From positions 61,755 to 125,754 of the forward strand of contig MENK01000035.1 in the NCBI GenBank assembly GCA_001768235.1: a stretch of DNA of 64,000 bases. Reading direction: 5' to 3'. Under the pieces are notes generated by a model, which searched no databases, was not told the DNA's origin, and saw only the letters and a program-made list of their open reading frames with translations. The translations under genes were made by a program, and so were the position numbers. The stretch comes from Bacteroidetes bacterium GWB2_32_14 (GTDB lineage Bacteria; Bacteroidota; Bacteroidia; Bacteroidales; UBA12077). Below are positions 51,193-56,469 of this stretch, piece after piece. Every line of letters begins with the position of its first letter. The stretch's first letter is position 1.

Positions 51193-51819
51193 TTATAGAT
51201 AATTATTGAAATTTATTTTTTGTAATGTTTTTTCCAGTATTTCAAGTCCTTTAGCATTTGCAATTCCATGAATATGATAAATAAAAAGCTCATGTATAAA
51301 TTCTGATCGCTGAATATCGTTTTGGGAAAAAATTTCGTCTTCATGCATATTCATAAAACGGCTCACCTGTAAGCGGGCAATTATTTCTTCTTTCAGCTCT
51401 GCTCTGTACAATCCTTCTTCTTTGCCTTTTTTGATATTTTCGAGAATGGATTGATGCATTCTCTCTTTTCGTAGAGTATGTATTTTTGCATACAGTTCGG
51501 GATAGTATTTTTTTAAATCATATTCTGTTGCCGGGTTATAATCTTTCATTGTTTTAATGATATGCATATTTACTTCGAGCAACTTTTCGATAGCATTCAT
51601 TTCCTTTTTGTCAATATTATTAAAGTCGCATTCTTTCTGATTTGTGACATAATCAACAACCTTTTCGACAAGGTCGTTTTTATTTTCAACGTACAGGTAG
51701 AGCGTTTTTTTTGATATTCCCAGTTCCCGGGCAATATCATCCATGGTAATACTCTTTATGCCATATTTCATGTAAAGAGCAGTAACCTTTTCTAATATAT
51801 TTTGTAATTCTGAATTCAT
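51193..51819 (-). CDS. TetR/AcrR family transcriptional regulator
   Basis: YGIKSITMDDIARELGISKKTLY HTH. The likely start is MNSEL at 51819, because TATATTTG (-7 element) lies at 51824-51831. Confidence 0.94.
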   Translation of the reverse strand: MNSELQNILEKVTALYMKYGIKSITMDDIARELGISKKTLYLYVENKNDLVEKVVDYVTNQKECDFNNIDKKEMNAIEKLLEVNMHIIKTMKDYNPATEYDLKKYYPELYAKIHTLRKERMHQSILENIKKGKEEGLYRAELKEEIIARLQVSRFMNMHEDEIFSQNDIQRSEFIHELFIYHIHGIANAKGLEILEKTLQKINFNNYL

Positions 51820-51847
51820 GGTGCAAATATAAAGCAAAAACTATTTC

Positions 51848-51875
51848 GGAAACAAAAAAAGTATTTAAAGTTTCC
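51848..51875. promoter_or_regulatory. Candidate TetR operator overlapping the efflux operon promoter
   Basis: GGAAAC-N16-GTTTCC inverted repeat just upstream of the -7 element. Confidence 0.5.
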
Positions 51876-52038
51876 AGAGTTTTTTCTAAACAAATTTCAA
51901 AATAGTTTTGTTCGATTGAATTTTTAATTCATTAAGTTTTTGTTAATTTTTTTGAAACAAAGAATCGCCCATCACAAAATCTGTGCAAAACAGTTCTTGT
52001 GAACATGTAAAATTTAGGGATGAATGAGAGGAAAGGTG

Positions 52039-52073
52039 CAGGAGTCAGGATACAGGATTCAGTTGGCAGGGAG
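52039..52073 (+). repeat. Degenerate CAG-anchored heptamer array (5 units)
   Basis: CAGGAGT CAGGATA CAGGATT CAGTTGG CAGGGAG. Confidence 0.8.
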
Positions 52074-52145
52074 AGTCCACAGTTTAAAAAGCGTTTCTAT
52101 GGATTTTTTTTATCACTATGAAATTAAGATAAAAGTAAAAAGGGG

Positions 52146-52201
52146 CAGTTGGCAGTAAGCAAAAGGCAAGTTACGAGATACAGGGTACAGTTAGCAGTTT
52201 G
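52146..52201 (+). repeat. Degenerate CAG-anchored heptamer array (8 units)
   Basis: CAGTTGG CAGTAAG CAAAAGG CAAGTTA CGAGATA CAGGGTA CAGTTAG CAGTTTG. Confidence 0.85.
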
Positions 52202-52211
52202 CGGGAAAAAG

Positions 52212-52298
52212 ACCACGGACAATAGAACATAGACCACCGTCCATAACTAAAAGAATTCAACTATGGCCTGAGGGCTATCAACTATTGACTAATAACTA
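52212..52298. repeat. Inverted pair of ATAG/CTAT heptamer arrays (12 x 7 nt)
   Basis: ACCACGG ACAATAG AACATAG ACCACCG TCCATAA | CTAAAAG AATTCAA | CTATGGC CTGAGGG CTATCAA CTATTGA CTAATAA, then CTA (the stop of the Wzi-like gene). Confidence 0.8.
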
Positions 52299-53903
52299 AA
52301 ACCCGATATTCGCTCCCAGGGAAATGGTATTTCGTGTTCCGTAGTAGTATGCCGGAGTGTATTTGATATTATCGCCTGTAATTTCGCTGTGTTGATACTT
52401 AACAAAAATATAACCATCGTTAATAACCTGGTAAGAAGCTCTAAGCGAGACCGTTTTATTTTCCCATTCCACGTTATCCATAAACGGATTCCCAAGCCGT
52501 GAACCTCCCAGGTCATCATAATCTTTGCCTTTTTGAGCAAACAAGTAATCGGCTTTAAGAATTAATGTTCTGAATGGTTTCACGATAACTGAAAAGTAGA
52601 ATTCATGTGAATTATCCATGAGATAATGACCCAGGTTATAGCCATTACTTTCGAATGTAGTGGTTGGAATATTGTGTTTGTAAGTGAGGGGCATCGACCG
52701 GGTGTATTCGGCTGTAATAAAGGTGTTTGTAATAAAATCGGAGATTCGTGTGCCGGCTTTAAAACTCCAGAAATTCCACATCGTATCGTTAAAAAACCTG
52801 TCTGTTGACAGCTCGTCAATAAATAAAGTGACCGAAAGATGTACTTTCTTTATATTTCGAGAGCTGATATCAATAAACATCTGAGAGTTCTGGCCTACAT
52901 TTCTCCCGGACTGATCGGTAGCATTGTAGGTATGGTCAACTGATTTGTAGAACATTACGGGAATAAGATACTGCAATTGCGGGCCATCGGAGCTGTAAAT
53001 AATTGAATTCCCCAGAGAAACATAAAAATTGTTCCAGGGTTTAAATGTGAATAGGTTGGCTGCCAGGTATTTATCGAACATTACATCGCGGGTATCGGTA
53101 CCGTAAGCATTGGTGAAAGTCATTGATGATGCACTATCGACAACTTCGGAAACAAGCCATCCGTGAACCCAGTTAAACTCGAACCATTTCGCGGGTTTGA
53201 GCTGTAGTTTAATGTGAGCAAACGAAGGTGTGTGGCCACTGAAAATGTTAGCCCCGTTGTAGTTGTTGCCCCACTCGAAATGATCTTTAACAATACCGAG
53301 ACTACCCCAGTTCCACGAATAGGTTAAGCCACCACGCATCTCGCTATAATCGCCACCATCGTCGGTATATTTGTAATTGGCCCCTGTTCGCTGAGTCAGG
53401 AAATCTTCTTTTTCAAGTATTGTACTTTCGTGGTTATCGCGCAGGCTTGCATAAAACCCCCAGTGATTTCCTACATAGGCAAATGCCTCGGCTCCATTCC
53501 ACCGATGATAAAAACTCCCGCTATCATTCATAAAATATTCAATTCCCAGTATGGGATTTACAGAAAACGTAAACAGCGAATCCTTGTAAGTGTATAAATC
53601 CAAGCGTTTATCAAAGTTTTTATCTTTTCGAAGTTCTTTATTAAAATCTTTGAAATAAAAATCGAGCTCTGCCTGCTGACGCGAGTTTAAAGAATAACTG
53701 CTTTCTTTAACCTCCGTGAGTTTTTCTGCTATAAACATTCTGGAAAAAGGCTTAACTGTAGTATGTATATCAATAACTTTTAAATTGGCAAACTCATCCA
53801 GAAAGTCGTAAACATCTTTGTTTGAAGTATGATAATAAACATTTTGTGCATACAATGAAATTGAAAAGAAAAGTATTGTAATTAGAAAGAATAGTTTTTT
53901 CAT
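52296..53903 (-). CDS. Capsule assembly Wzi-like outer membrane beta-barrel protein
   Basis: Signal peptide; N-terminal VYDFLDE..KPFSR helical segment; amphipathic strands; terminal Phe (GANIGF); at the end of a polysaccharide locus. Confidence 0.65.
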   Translation of the reverse strand: MKKLFFLITILFFSISLYAQNVYYHTSNKDVYDFLDEFANLKVIDIHTTVKPFSRMFIAEKLTEVKESSYSLNSRQQAELDFYFKDFNKELRKDKNFDKRLDLYTYKDSLFTFSVNPILGIEYFMNDSGSFYHRWNGAEAFAYVGNHWGFYASLRDNHESTILEKEDFLTQRTGANYKYTDDGGDYSEMRGGLTYSWNWGSLGIVKDHFEWGNNYNGANIFSGHTPSFAHIKLQLKPAKWFEFNWVHGWLVSEVVDSASSMTFTNAYGTDTRDVMFDKYLAANLFTFKPWNNFYVSLGNSIIYSSDGPQLQYLIPVMFYKSVDHTYNATDQSGRNVGQNSQMFIDISSRNIKKVHLSVTLFIDELSTDRFFNDTMWNFWSFKAGTRISDFITNTFITAEYTRSMPLTYKHNIPTTTFESNGYNLGHYLMDNSHEFYFSVIVKPFRTLILKADYLFAQKGKDYDDLGGSRLGNPFMDNVEWENKTVSLRASYQVINDGYIFVKYQHSEITGDNIKYTPAYYYGTRNTISLGANIGF

Positions 53904-53919
53904 TTTTAAATGTGAAAAG

Positions 53920-53940
53920 TTTATAGTCGATAGTCCATAG
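53920..53940 (+). repeat. Heptamer array downstream of the four-helix-bundle gene
   Basis: TTTATAG TCGATAG TCCATAG. Confidence 0.75.
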
Positions 53941-53963
53941 TTTTAGTTCGTTGCAAATGAATT

Positions 53964-54317
53964 CTATTTAATCGAATTTCTCAAAGATTGTATCATTTTT
54001 ATAATTTCTTCTGCTTTAGAATAATTATCCTGAAAAATATCCTGATTAATAAAACATGTTTTTTTAGCAATATGAAGACAAGCTACAACCTCAATTGCAG
54101 ATCTCAGAGCATAAGAAAGAAATTTTTTAAACTCTGGATTTGTTTGACCAGTTGAACCTTCTGCAATATTAAGAACAATAGAATCTGCCGCTCTTTTCAT
54201 CTGAGATGTTAGAACATAAATTTCGTCTTTGGGAAATGATTTTACTAATTTGTTAATATCATCATCAAAGGCGAGAGCTTTTTGCCATACAATTAAATTT
54301 TCAAACTTGAATGCCAT
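53964..54317 (-). CDS. Four helix bundle protein (23S rRNA IVS protein / Avd-like family)
   Basis: FENLIVWQKA...FPKDEIYVLTSQMKRAADSIVLNIAEGS...FKKFLSYALRSAIEV, the signature of this family. Confidence 0.93.
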   Translation of the reverse strand: MAFKFENLIVWQKALAFDDDINKLVKSFPKDEIYVLTSQMKRAADSIVLNIAEGSTGQTNPEFKKFLSYALRSAIEVVACLHIAKKTCFINQDIFQDNYSKAEEIIKMIQSLRNSIK

Positions 54318-54326
54318 ATAAATTTA

Positions 54327-54357
54327 CTATTGTCTATCGATTGTGGACTATTGCCTA
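54327..54357 (+). repeat. Heptamer array upstream of the four-helix-bundle gene
   Basis: CTATTGT CTATCGA TTGTGGA CTATTGC, then CTA (the stop of the sugar transferase). Confidence 0.75.
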
Positions 54358-55893
54358 GCTACTGCGTGCACTTTTAAACAGTATATTCCACAGGGCTTTC
54401 CAGAAATATTTCCAGTCGGTAAGGAGAGGGTGTTTTTCGTAGGCGTTTAGGTATTTCATTTCTGAAGCTTCAATTTCTTCAAGTGTTTTAGGCATATCTA
54501 CATAAAAAGGAGGAATTAACCCGGGTTTGGTTTTTATTCGTTTTTCCTGTAACTCTTTTGAGTATAAACTGAAATAATGTTCACTTAACGGACGGACGCC
54601 AAAAAGCTTCATCTCGCCTTTAAAAAAATTTATAAACATGGGTAGTTCGTCGAACCAGAATTTTCGAAATATCTTACCTAAAGTAGTTACCCGAAAATCA
54701 TCTTTGAATTTACCCCCTTCCTGTAAGTCAGATTTCTCATAAACATATTCCTGTAAATATTCGGCAAAAGGGTGCATGGTGCGGAACTTATACACGTGAA
54801 TTATTTTACCATTTTTACCTATTCTGCGAAGTTTTATTAATGGCCCATAGGTAGGATGCTGGTCGTAAAAAGGTTTTCTTGTTTTGCGGGCAATATAATA
54901 CAGTAACCCCCGGATATTTTTTTCAGAAACAACTTCAAAGCCACACGAATATAACCTGCCCAGAACTTCTGCTTTTGATAATACCCGGTTATTGCCCCGT
55001 GTAAGAAAAAAATATACCCCCTTCGTAAGGTTGAATTTTGGAAATACCCTCTTGATAATAAAATCGAAGAAATAGTAAATACTGTTCAGCACGGGGGGAT
55101 ATTTACTGAAAATTCTCTTTTTACGCTGGTTTTTTGATTCAAAACAACCTATAAATATTCCCTGTTCGGGGAGTTTACGATTTACCGACTCGAAAAATTT
55201 GTTAATGTACCGCATATCGTTGATGCGGCGGAGATTCACGATTTTATGATAAACCTTCTCGGGGAGCTTATCAACATTAAAACGGGTTGTGGTAGAAAGT
55301 AACGAATAATCGGGTATGTTAAGGTCTATATGTTCTGATATAAAGGTAAATACATCAATGTTAGATTCTTCAATAATTGCATCACGAATATTTTCGGGGG
55401 CTTTTTCAAAATTTACATCCGCAGGAAGAGGCTCTGCAACAGGTACTTCGGTATATCTCCCGACAGTACGTTGATACACTTCGAAAACCTTTGATGTATC
55501 AGGCCCGGGTTTCGCACTGCATATAAAATAATCACAAAAAGAAAAAAAGAGTTCAAAAACGGTACCCAGGGATATAGTCCCTAAAACAACGATACGTGAA
55601 TAAAACAGGGAGCGAAACGAAAACATGATAATTGCTATAAGGCCTGTTATAATAAAGTTTGTAAGAATAATGTGCCATGCAGCACGGGATATGCTGTATC
55701 TTTCCGGGGCAGAGTATTTACGTGAAATTAAAGATATAAGTATCCATATTGCCAGAAAAAACAGGAAGGGATAAATATAGGCAGGCAAATAAACCCGTTT
55801 TGTTGCCGGTTTTATCCAGATCATGATTAAAAACGCCATGGTTAAGGCAGCAATATCAACAATAGTATTTATAAATACCGAGCGGCGGTTCAT
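54355..55893 (-). CDS. Bacterial sugar transferase (initiating polyprenyl phosphoglycosyl transferase family) with N-terminal TM region
   Basis: RIGKNGKIIHVYKFRTM, DDFRVTTLGKIFRKFWFDELP, GEMKLFGVRP, KPGL. Confidence 0.88.
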   Translation of the reverse strand: MNRRSVFINTIVDIAALTMAFLIMIWIKPATKRVYLPAYIYPFLFFLAIWILISLISRKYSAPERYSISRAAWHIILTNFIITGLIAIIMFSFRSLFYSRIVVLGTISLGTVFELFFSFCDYFICSAKPGPDTSKVFEVYQRTVGRYTEVPVAEPLPADVNFEKAPENIRDAIIEESNIDVFTFISEHIDLNIPDYSLLSTTTRFNVDKLPEKVYHKIVNLRRINDMRYINKFFESVNRKLPEQGIFIGCFESKNQRKKRIFSKYPPVLNSIYYFFDFIIKRVFPKFNLTKGVYFFLTRGNNRVLSKAEVLGRLYSCGFEVVSEKNIRGLLYYIARKTRKPFYDQHPTYGPLIKLRRIGKNGKIIHVYKFRTMHPFAEYLQEYVYEKSDLQEGGKFKDDFRVTTLGKIFRKFWFDELPMFINFFKGEMKLFGVRPLSEHYFSLYSKELQEKRIKTKPGLIPPFYVDMPKTLEEIEASEMKYLNAYEKHPLLTDWKYFWKALWNILFKSARSS

Positions 55894-56190
55894 TCTTATG
55901 TATTTAAATATTAAAGGTAGTAATTTATTTTGATAGTGTTTGTAAGAAAGCGATGAGCTGCGAGCCTGTCCTCCTTAGGCGGATTAATCGGCAGACAGCC
56001 TAAATCCCGTGAATATATTTATTCGTTCACAGTAAAGCTAAGAGCCTAGAGCATTTAATGTGTTAATTTTAAAATTTGCTAATATACTAATTGGTAAAAT
56101 TGTTAAAATGTTATAATACGAATCACTGTAGTCCGATAAAAAATATAGATATATAATGATATCTTGAAACAATAAGACATCCATGTTTCT

Positions 56191-56332
56191 TTCGCCCTTA
56201 CAGGGCTTTCCTTTTTGGTTGGTATTGTTTTACCATACTTTTGTTCCTTTGGAACTCAATAAAAGCCCCATCGGGGTAAAAGTACGGTAATAATCAGCAA
56301 CTTACAAAAATTAAAAGTGCTGTAAGCACGAC
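56191..56332. repeat. REP/BIME-like cluster of four short hairpins in mirror arrangement
   Basis: GCCC-TTACA-GGGC (56194), GTTCC-TTT-GGAAC (56243), GCCCC-ATC-GGGGT (56265), GTGC-TGTAA-GCAC (56317); flanks TACCATACTTTT and AAAAGTACGGTA are complementary. Confidence 0.7.
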
Positions 56333-56409
56333 AGTAAATACTTGTTAAAAGTCTTACCGGACAATAGCGATTACTAATTATTCATTGTTTCCAGCTACCT
56401 TTTTTTAAT

Positions 56410-56444
56410 CTTTTATCTTTTGCCTTTTCTCTTGTATCTTTTTA
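56410..56444 (+). repeat. Degenerate heptamer array (5 units) downstream of wecB
   Basis: CTTTTAT CTTTTGC CTTTTCT CTTGTAT CTTTTTA. Confidence 0.75.
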
Positions 56445-56469
56445 CTACAACTAAGGGTGCGAAGTTTCA

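Follow-up and report, generated by a model that had tools for sequence, protein, structure and literature searches.

What does a pair of inverted heptamer arrays do when it stands directly behind the last gene of an operon and holds no gene between its arms? The question is raised by a stretch of 64,000 nucleotides from Bacteroidetes bacterium GWB2_32_14 (contig MENK01000035.1, positions 61,755 to 125,754; hereafter the window), in which the stop codon of a Wzi-like outer-membrane protein gene (wzi) is followed on the minus strand by a hairpin made of 7-nt units. Only 1.6 kb away, arms of the same unit class and polarity enclose a four-helix-bundle gene of the PF05635 family, a likeness that an earlier note on this DNA had correctly recorded. 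That note saw the gene-less site as an empty version of the cassette and suggested that it may be a scar of gene loss, a landing pad for insertion or a non-autonomous element. The comparisons described here favor another reading, to which we give a probability of roughly 0.6: the hairpin would be a 3′-end element of the RNA of a 27-kb capsule operon, acting as a terminator, an RNase III site or both, and would never have held a gene.

The hairpin is a real, non-chance structure of two inverted 7-nt-unit arrays. Its anatomy, with five units on either side of a 14-nt spacer behind a TAG stop, is in every unit as the earlier note had written it (Table 1). A repeat search recovers inverted arms at 52220-52245 and 52262-52287, which are 26 nt long and 73% complementary, and the sense-strand fold of 52195-52305 (-) reaches -28.8 kcal/mol (z -2.66), a value matched by 1 of 200 shuffled sequences. 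The antisense (+) fold of the same region is weaker, at -19.3 kcal/mol (z -1.70; 16 of 200 shuffles equally good), and it is G-U pairs that account for this gap between the strands. The units share only the last two to four of their seven positions and are therefore not head-to-tail copies of one unit; Tandem Repeats Finder, run at a score of 30, does not call the hairpin arrays. Two details of the original description have to be toned down. The right arm is indeed an inverted array, but a poorer one than first described, as only two of its five units start with CTAT; in the contigs X6, X8, and X9, which come from other studies, its first unit reads CTATGGA (52246 A>G, + strand). Likewise, the left array does begin right after the TAG stop in this genome, but such anchoring is weaker than it appears because the orthologous stop, at the same codon, is TAA in 16 of the 23 relatives listed.

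The hairpin is read as a 3′-end element because a long stem and a U-run stand at the end of a NusG-led operon and form the only terminator-like site of the gap that follows. Between C35:140612 (C35 being the contig that carries the window) and wzi lie 22 open reading frames (ORFs) of at least 150 aa, all on the minus strand, the first of which carries a NusG domain and is presumably of the UpxY type of Bacteroides capsule loci. The hairpin follows the last of these co-directional ORFs and thus stands at the end of a transcription unit, as an intrinsic terminator should. Beyond wzi comes a gap of 477 nt and then a TetR/OEP/HlyD/AcrB efflux operon of different function, and in this gap a terminator pattern scan finds a single minus-strand site, 52247-52212, with the tail CTTTTTCCCG. 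The transcript is predicted to form an imperfect stem of about 35 bp as the 3′ end of the operon RNA. Together with the U-run, this stem could act as an intrinsic terminator; it could also, or instead, present a double-stranded target to RNase III, a homologue of which the genome encodes, and a barrier to 3′ exonucleases. The RNase III route would be analogous to the handling of intervening-sequence stems in rRNA. Neither of the two mechanisms, termination or cleavage by RNase III, excludes the other, and each is plausible.

Variation among strains is consistent with a structure that is kept. Contigs for comparison with the window came from four runs, one from each of four other studies; X6, X8, and X9 span the hairpin at about 97-98% identity. 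Among the rows listed, substitutions in the hairpin fall at 52246, 52269, 52274, and 52283, and all four retain or add pairs: the change at 52246 turns G-U into G-C, that at 52283 turns A-U into G-U, and those at 52269 and 52274 lie in the internal loop, where they add new pairs. The minimum free energy accordingly moves from -28.8 to -34.1 kcal/mol with the single X6 change and to -38.3 with all four changes, which are found in the X9 contig and in one of the two X8 contigs, and the structure stays the same in each case. Length variation in 7-nt steps, which the earlier note had suggested looking for at this site, does occur in the neighboring arrays, where X6 and X8 are 7 nt shorter at 52039 and X6, X8, and X9 each gain 14 nt in total near 52080-52087, but no indel inside 52212-52298 is among the rows listed for these three contigs. 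The small one-unit hairpin between the neighboring arrays is longer in X8, by a 14-nt insert with ATAG and CTATGG (- strand). The 30-kb X9 contig, from a strain about 97% identical, keeps the gene-less hairpin but has 562 other letters, which may be a GxxExxY/PDDEXK_3 cassette like those of L120 and G003, in place of 53849-54356, that is, of the whole PF05635 cassette. Since X6 and X8 retain that cassette, it is polymorphic at the strain level.

The site behind wzi was also compared across relatives. Loci from 23 relatives were available, and the 22 with at least 200 nt of 3′ flank were scored with a hidden Markov model (HMM) of the PF05635 proteins of this uncultured Bacteroidales genus. None of the 22 has a PF05635-like frame downstream of wzi, nor do 24 further loci, many of which are the same contigs; a metagenome scan for additional wzi relatives yielded 10 loci, mostly on contigs already included. 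The same HMM gives matches only upstream of wzi, in this genome (G000) and in G007, G010, and G023. What follows the stop instead varies. In G007 and G010 it is an ordinary hairpin and then a small GIY-YIG ORF that does not lie between heptamer arms; in G023 it is a ACCACTAAG-type hairpin; and in G001 (L122), G008, and G020 an AGCTnnn heptamer array forms a 13-bp hairpin right after the same stop, which in G001 is followed by T6 and folds at -21.7 kcal/mol (z -4.95; 0 of 200 shuffles). The nearest relative, L120, whose protein is 91% identical, shares TAG TTATTAG TCAATA, i.e., the stop and 13 nt, and continues with TCCACAG ACCAAAG. It thus has a left xxxxxAG array only, without the right arm; homology breaks at 52283 and resumes at 51956, leaving 327 nt of the wzi-TetR gap unalignable. 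Because L120 shares only the start of the left array, the right arm is the younger part, and the hairpin as such is confined to the lineage of the present genome. The likely history is therefore that an xxxxxAG array, which predates the hairpin as L120 has it too, already stood behind the stop, and that a complementary right arm would have been added later in this lineage. The earlier note had held that its view would fall if relatives never carried an ORF here and the region behaved as an ordinary conserved terminator hairpin. Half of this was found: no relative is filled and the hairpin is of the terminator type, but it is not conserved.

Arrays of this kind are sparse in the genome, and those of the ATAG class are concentrated in one operon. 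TAG in at least four of five slots at period 7 occurs in 5 runs in the 3.66-Mb genome, compared with 0, 1, 1, 1, and 0 runs by the same criterion at periods 5, 6, 8, 9, and 10. Three of the five runs, at the wzi 3′ site, in the left arm of the four-helix cassette, and beyond the window, are of the ATAG class; a 27-kb segment of contig C35 holds all three, and they share a strand. Scanned genome-wide for 4-mer and 3-mer periods and at lag 7, the sequence shows only a modest excess of period 7, because the units are degenerate. A strict consensus scan found inverted pairs in 5 of 246 period-7 arrays and in 6 of 442 period-5 arrays (the period-5 version being the laxer test by construction), and none at periods 8, 10, or 11. 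It recovered neither the wzi-site hairpin nor the filled cassettes, and its counts carry little weight by themselves. The five period-7 pairs were checked by eye and are further gene-less inverted heptamer hairpins of this genome. Three of the five span the entire stop-to-start spacer between co-directional genes; among those on contigs C22, C24, C26, and C34, two fill such a spacer whole and two lie between convergent genes. With the wzi site, this makes six gene-less hairpins, of which the two at transcription-unit ends (the wzi site and C24:215385-215464) both have a T-run, while the three operon-internal ones have none. Such a pattern would be expected if the stem is a generic module that acquires a T-run where transcription has to end.

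The third ATAG-class array belongs to the leader of the operon: it follows the metK terminator closely and precedes the NusG-like first gene by 336 nt. One arm class thus marks the 27-kb capsule operon at its head (this leader), in one cassette inside it, and at its tail. The right arm of the hairpin is identical to the reverse complement of this head array at 28 of 35 positions, a score that none of 3000 shuffles attains but 6 of 120 permutations of unit order do. The simple explanation of this similarity is that the arrays descend from a common ancestor. The two relatives with the same gene order in which both ends were read, G003 and G024, show no head-tail match of class.

The hairpin also belongs to a wider family. 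PF05635, a four-helix-bundle family of the 23S rRNA intervening-sequence type, has 12 matches in this genome and 3-15 in each of 25 related genomes (E up to 1e-10). In the flanks of 51 of these genes, mostly a tandem array of 7-8-nt units lies upstream and an array of complementary units downstream. The arm classes vary by site (ATAG/CTAT, CAG/CTG, AAGACAG/CTGACTT, TTTCAGA/TCTGAAA, and others), and in 19 of 30 loci no more than 2 of 20-29 mismatched pairs of arms bind as well as the matched ones. The hairpin behind wzi is a gene-less member of this fast-evolving family of heptamer-array hairpins, which brackets most PF05635 genes of the genus. It has the inverted 7-nt arrays, and their complementarity is beyond chance; since its loop is only 14 nt and without a PF05635 ORF, and no relative has a filled allele at the wzi site, it represents the gene-less form only. 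Quasi-palindromes are subject to templated correction, and this process and selection on pairing are both candidates for how the two arms stay complementary. As a side observation on the family, G020:C3:86184-90118 packs three PF05635 matches into 4 kb, and one of these contains an internal TGA.

Several results weigh against the hairpin as a 3′-end element of the operon RNA. The stem of -28.8 kcal/mol is followed by CUUUUUCCC, but its U-run is short (5 U) and its lower stem weak, and the 3 terminator-like sites counted in the 2.8-kb region are no excess over the 1.8 +/- 1.3 in shuffled sequences. A hairpin at the 3′ position of wzi is not conserved among relatives. In L120 the fold directly after the stop is no better than shuffles (z +0.22), and a canonical terminator lies some 130-170 nt further on; in G003, which has GAGCT-type units after the stop, the fold is not significant (z -0.44). 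The right arm is predicted to form a duplex of -46.3 kcal/mol with the head array, whereas the local arms alone are a poor pair at -19.2. The four substitutions that keep or add pairs are few, and contigs drop rare variants. Finally, the PF05635 cassettes show no consistent advantage of the sense strand (10 site groups prefer sense, 5 antisense), so that the arms may also pair at the DNA level. The filled cassette of the window itself folds better antisense, at -32.7 vs -19.5 kcal/mol sense.

Table 1. Coordinates of the gene-less hairpin, its neighbors, and related arrays (positions in the window unless a contig of the genome is named).
Feature	Position	Strand	Remark
Wzi-like TAG stop	52298-52296	-	First heptamer abuts the stop directly
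Left arm TTATTAG TCAATAG TTGATAG CCCTCAG GCCATAG	52295-52261	-	5 x 7 nt, xxxxxAG class
Spacer TTGAATTCTTTTAG, 14 nt	52260-52247	-	Mostly apical-stem extension in the fold, 4-nt loop remaining
Right arm TTATGGA CGGTGGT CTATGTT CTATTGT CCGTGGT	52246-52212	-	Pairs with left arm; self-fold is an alternative
Tail CTTTTTCCC	52211-52203	-	Directly 3′ of the stem
Wzi-like outer-membrane gene, 535 aa	52296-53903	-	Last gene of the 27-kb co-directional polysaccharide locus
Filled sibling cassette	53920-54354	-	1.6 kb from the gene-less hairpin; between Bac_transf and Wzi-like genes
Filled sibling, left arm GCAATAG TCCACAA TCGATAG ACAATAG	54354-54327	-	
Filled sibling, PF05635/TIGR02436 four-helix-bundle gene	54317-53964	-	8e-35
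Filled sibling, right arm CTATGGA CTATCGA CTATAAA	53940-53920	-	
CTGnnnn arrays, direct orientation	52197-52142 and 52069-52035	-	21-nt stretch in common, 86%; no inverted partner
One-unit hairpin TCCATAG...CTGTGGA	52103-52076	-	Between the CTGnnnn arrays, preceded by A8; same unit family
Operon-head array TCCATAG TTGATAG ACCACAG TCAATAG ACGATAG GCCCCAG TCCATTG	C35:~140935-140985	-	Outside the window
Further gene-less hairpin, own unit class	C22:25164-25259		Strict scan
Further gene-less hairpin, own unit class	C24:215385-215464		Between convergent genes, has T-run
Further gene-less hairpin, own unit class	C26:76525-76619		Strict scan
Further gene-less hairpin, own unit class	C34:3059-3196		Strict scan

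Filled and empty versions of one site, as the earlier note had envisaged, do exist in the genus, but at another junction. This junction (site 3) is occupied in the present genome by a gene-less hairpin at C35:8426-8524, between a gene ending ...YWPK* and a gene starting MAIKFQYNK. Of 24 loci (L096-L119), those of G023 and G005 could not be scored. Among the other 22, the site is empty with both arms in 13 (this genome included; G003 weakly) and filled in 8, where arms of like style enclose a PF05635 gene. The remaining locus, in G013, is a scar: an internal deletion has removed the right arm and joined what is left, the left arm and some 55 nt of ORF, to the spacer end. The states require at least four changes on the flank tree. 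In the PF05635 tree, genes group by site. Site 3 is an exception: its genes fall into two lineages that differ in arm class (TTTCAGA/TCTGAAA vs GTTCAGA/GAACTGA) and alternate along a single well-supported clade of the flank tree. A gene of the first type, again with that arm class, is also present at a different site in G009. Both the two states, filled and empty, and the exchange of cassettes are thus real in this genus, and the only traceable gene loss, that of G013, is untidy.

Given such a junction, the wzi hairpin could be the scar of a lost PF05635 gene or a landing pad for insertion into its loop. In favor of this, the PF05635 gene 1.6 kb upstream and its orthologues in G007 and G010 have arms of the same unit class, and the slot between Bac_transf and wzi varies even among strains. 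However, none of the 22 relatives or 24 further loci is filled downstream of wzi, L120 is without a right arm, and the 14-nt loop has no ORF remnant, whereas the loss in G013 kept about 55 nt of ORF; alignment to the flanks of the filled cassette is weak as well. For these reasons neither form of the proposal is upheld at this site, and we consider it unlikely. Direct derivation of the hairpin from the filled cassette was tried and rejected, as local alignment gives matches of only 11 nt (upstream) and 10 nt (downstream), with scores reached by 37 of 2000 and 379 of 2000 shuffles, respectively; the likeness to those flanks goes no further than the unit class. A mobile element resembling a miniature inverted-repeat transposable element, non-autonomous and with the hairpin as an arms-only copy of a full cassette, would accommodate the alternating site-3 lineages with their own arm classes and the recurrence in G009, as well as the three ATAG-class arrays on one strand and the 28/35 match of the right arm to the head array. 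Yet the right arm is single-copy (a short-word BLAST finds only itself, and the next matches are of 12 nt or less, so that there are no dispersed copies), no target-site duplication is visible in the sequence around the hairpin, and the start of the left arm is common to L120 and hence old rather than inserted. The other five gene-less hairpins of this genome, moreover, differ in class from its PF05635 arms, and homologous recombination in the flanks (allelic exchange) could yield the site-3 pattern without transposition. A mobile origin, which the earlier note had also put forward, thus finds little room here and is quite improbable.

No more credible is the idea that the hairpin is a neutral by-product, in which slippage-grown arrays in a hypervariable spacer happen to be inverted without function. 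The unalignable stretch of the gap (52283-51956), in a comparison with a 91%-identical relative, would be expected of such a spacer, as would the neighboring strain steps of 7 and 14 nt and the existence of unpaired solo arrays (CTGnnnn at 52035-52197 and the operon-head array). Against this, every listed substitution in the hairpin retains or adds pairs, the fold is strand-asymmetric and beats 199 of 200 shuffles, and indels are listed for the flanks but not for the hairpin itself. The head array suggests a further alternative on the scale of the operon, namely that the true partner of the right arm is the leader array 27 kb away, as RNA or DNA, and that the two mark or reset the operon. The predicted duplex is far stronger than the -17.2 to -25.3 kcal/mol of the five other left-right combinations of ATAG-class arms, and the sequence identity withstands shuffling and, largely, permutation; nevertheless, the distance of 27 kb, the missing class match in G003 and G024, and shared array ancestry, which explains the similarity without interaction, make this bracket very improbable. 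A broader proposal joins several of these elements: cassettes of arms and PF05635 gene would move or be exchanged as units, the gene-less hairpins would be their arms-only members, and the arrays would serve as signals specific to their class, which RNase III or the cassette's own protein would recognize in RNA form, so that the transcript of one operon is delimited and processed. It would give meaning to the single arm class at head, cassette, and tail, and on it the arrays would not be mere debris, but we regard it as a long shot. The 3′-end element thus remains the preferred reading of the wzi hairpin.

Several known systems resemble the hairpin in part. It shares with intrinsic terminators a stem-loop and T-run at the end of a transcription unit, of which G001, G008, and G020 have a compact AGCTnnn version, but its stem is far longer, more mismatched, and set on a 7-nt grid, and it has only 5 U. 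A further partial match is the intervening sequence (IVS) in helix 45 of the Coxiella burnetii 23S rRNA, which has GACAGAT heptamers before the start of S23p, in 2 or 3 copies by strain, and a 28-bp terminal stem within which RNase III cuts (PMC4990558). The filled sibling cassette has the same build, with a stem of terminal inverted repeats around an S23p/PF05635 ORF and with heptamers, and the gene-less hairpin has the stem part of it. Unlike the Coxiella IVS, however, the hairpin lies in an mRNA 3′ untranslated region, is without an ORF, and has degenerate units that keep 2-4 of 7 positions; cleavage here is a prediction. Its site is between a protein gene and the TetR gene, not in helix 25 or 45 of 23S rRNA, and an Rfam scan of 51700-54500 finds no rRNA and no relevant family, the sole row being a small-RNA model at 19 bits (E 0.46). 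Burgin et al. in 1990 are said to have described ORF-less 23S IVSs of the Salmonella type, short extended hairpins that RNase III removes. Such a short gene-less hairpin would be a natural analogue of the empty cassette, with the difference that these IVSs sit in fixed rRNA helices and leave the rRNA fragmented.

Outside rRNA, the repetitive extragenic palindromic (REP) sequences and bacterial interspersed mosaic elements (BIMEs) of enterobacteria are imperfect palindromes that lie after stops or between cistrons and shape mRNA 3′ ends and stability; REPs occur in hundreds of near-identical copies and have a dedicated transposase (RAYT). The wzi hairpin is likewise an imperfect palindrome after a stop codon but is single-copy, with a locus-specific sequence. 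Cyanobacteria have intergenic tandem heptamer repeats known as short tandemly repeated repetitive (STRR) sequences. Intergenic tandem arrays of TAACTGA are described in Beggiatoaceae, Cyanobacteria, and five Bacteroidetes, and nearly all of these are direct, with a single inverted set out of 170 in the genome concerned, while most lie close before a start codon (MacGregor, 2015; PMC4679880). The two kinds of array have in common short 7-nt units, a strictly intergenic location, and a sporadic distribution; however, the TAACTGA and STRR arrays are perfect copies of one unit, whereas those of the hairpin are degenerate, inverted, and able to pair. Literature searches found no paper on heptamer-hairpin packaging of PF05635 genes outside rRNA or on gene-less hairpins of the same build.

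PF05635 is a very large family without function, in print mainly from rRNA intervening sequences, and the present genus offers natural experiments on it: a gene-less hairpin in the place of what is a compact terminator in closer relatives, a junction with empty, filled, and scarred states among 22 species, two types of cassette that are exchanged along with their arms, and strain differences in steps of 7 and 14 nt. If the hairpins are indeed RNA 3′-end or processing signals, they would constitute an unrecognized class of operon punctuation in Bacteroidota, and could account for part of the 7-nt repeat excess in bacterial genomes.

The name of the gene before the hairpin is tentative. "Wzi-like" derives from a language-model look-alike search only, in which the nearest clusters carry PF14052 on 28-46% of their members; Pfam, NCBIfam, and PDB sequence searches with the 535-aa protein gave no match even at E 10. 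Within the window, the 577-nt gap at 55894-56469 has no heptamer arrays. Upstream of wzi, the slot behind Bac_transf holds PF05635 with TAG/CTA arms in this genome and, as the orthologous cassettes, in G007 and G010, and a divergent PF05635 with GGAGA/TCTCC arms in G023. It is occupied by a GxxExxY/PDDEXK_3 gene in G003 and L120, by GIY-YIG in G024 and G017, and is empty in G011, G006, G021, and G016.

A second hairpin style, with units of 8-9 nt (ACCACTAAG.../...CTTAGTGGT or ACCACAA.../...TTGTGGTT), occurs beside GxxExxY and GIY-YIG genes. It was seen at L014 (after the GxxExxY gene), L017, L024, and L120 and at G000:C19:48552-48775, the last of which occupies a site that carries a PF05635 gene in 10 relatives. 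Small GIY-YIG genes are also accompanied by repeated GTCATTCCC...GGGAATC and CACTTCGACAGGCTCAGTGTGAC hairpins, in the upstream gaps of L017 and L020 and at post-wzi sites of the L010/L007 type. In G014, such GIY-YIG-associated repeats extend over about 730 nt and include duplicated fragments of the 3′ end of Bac_transf.

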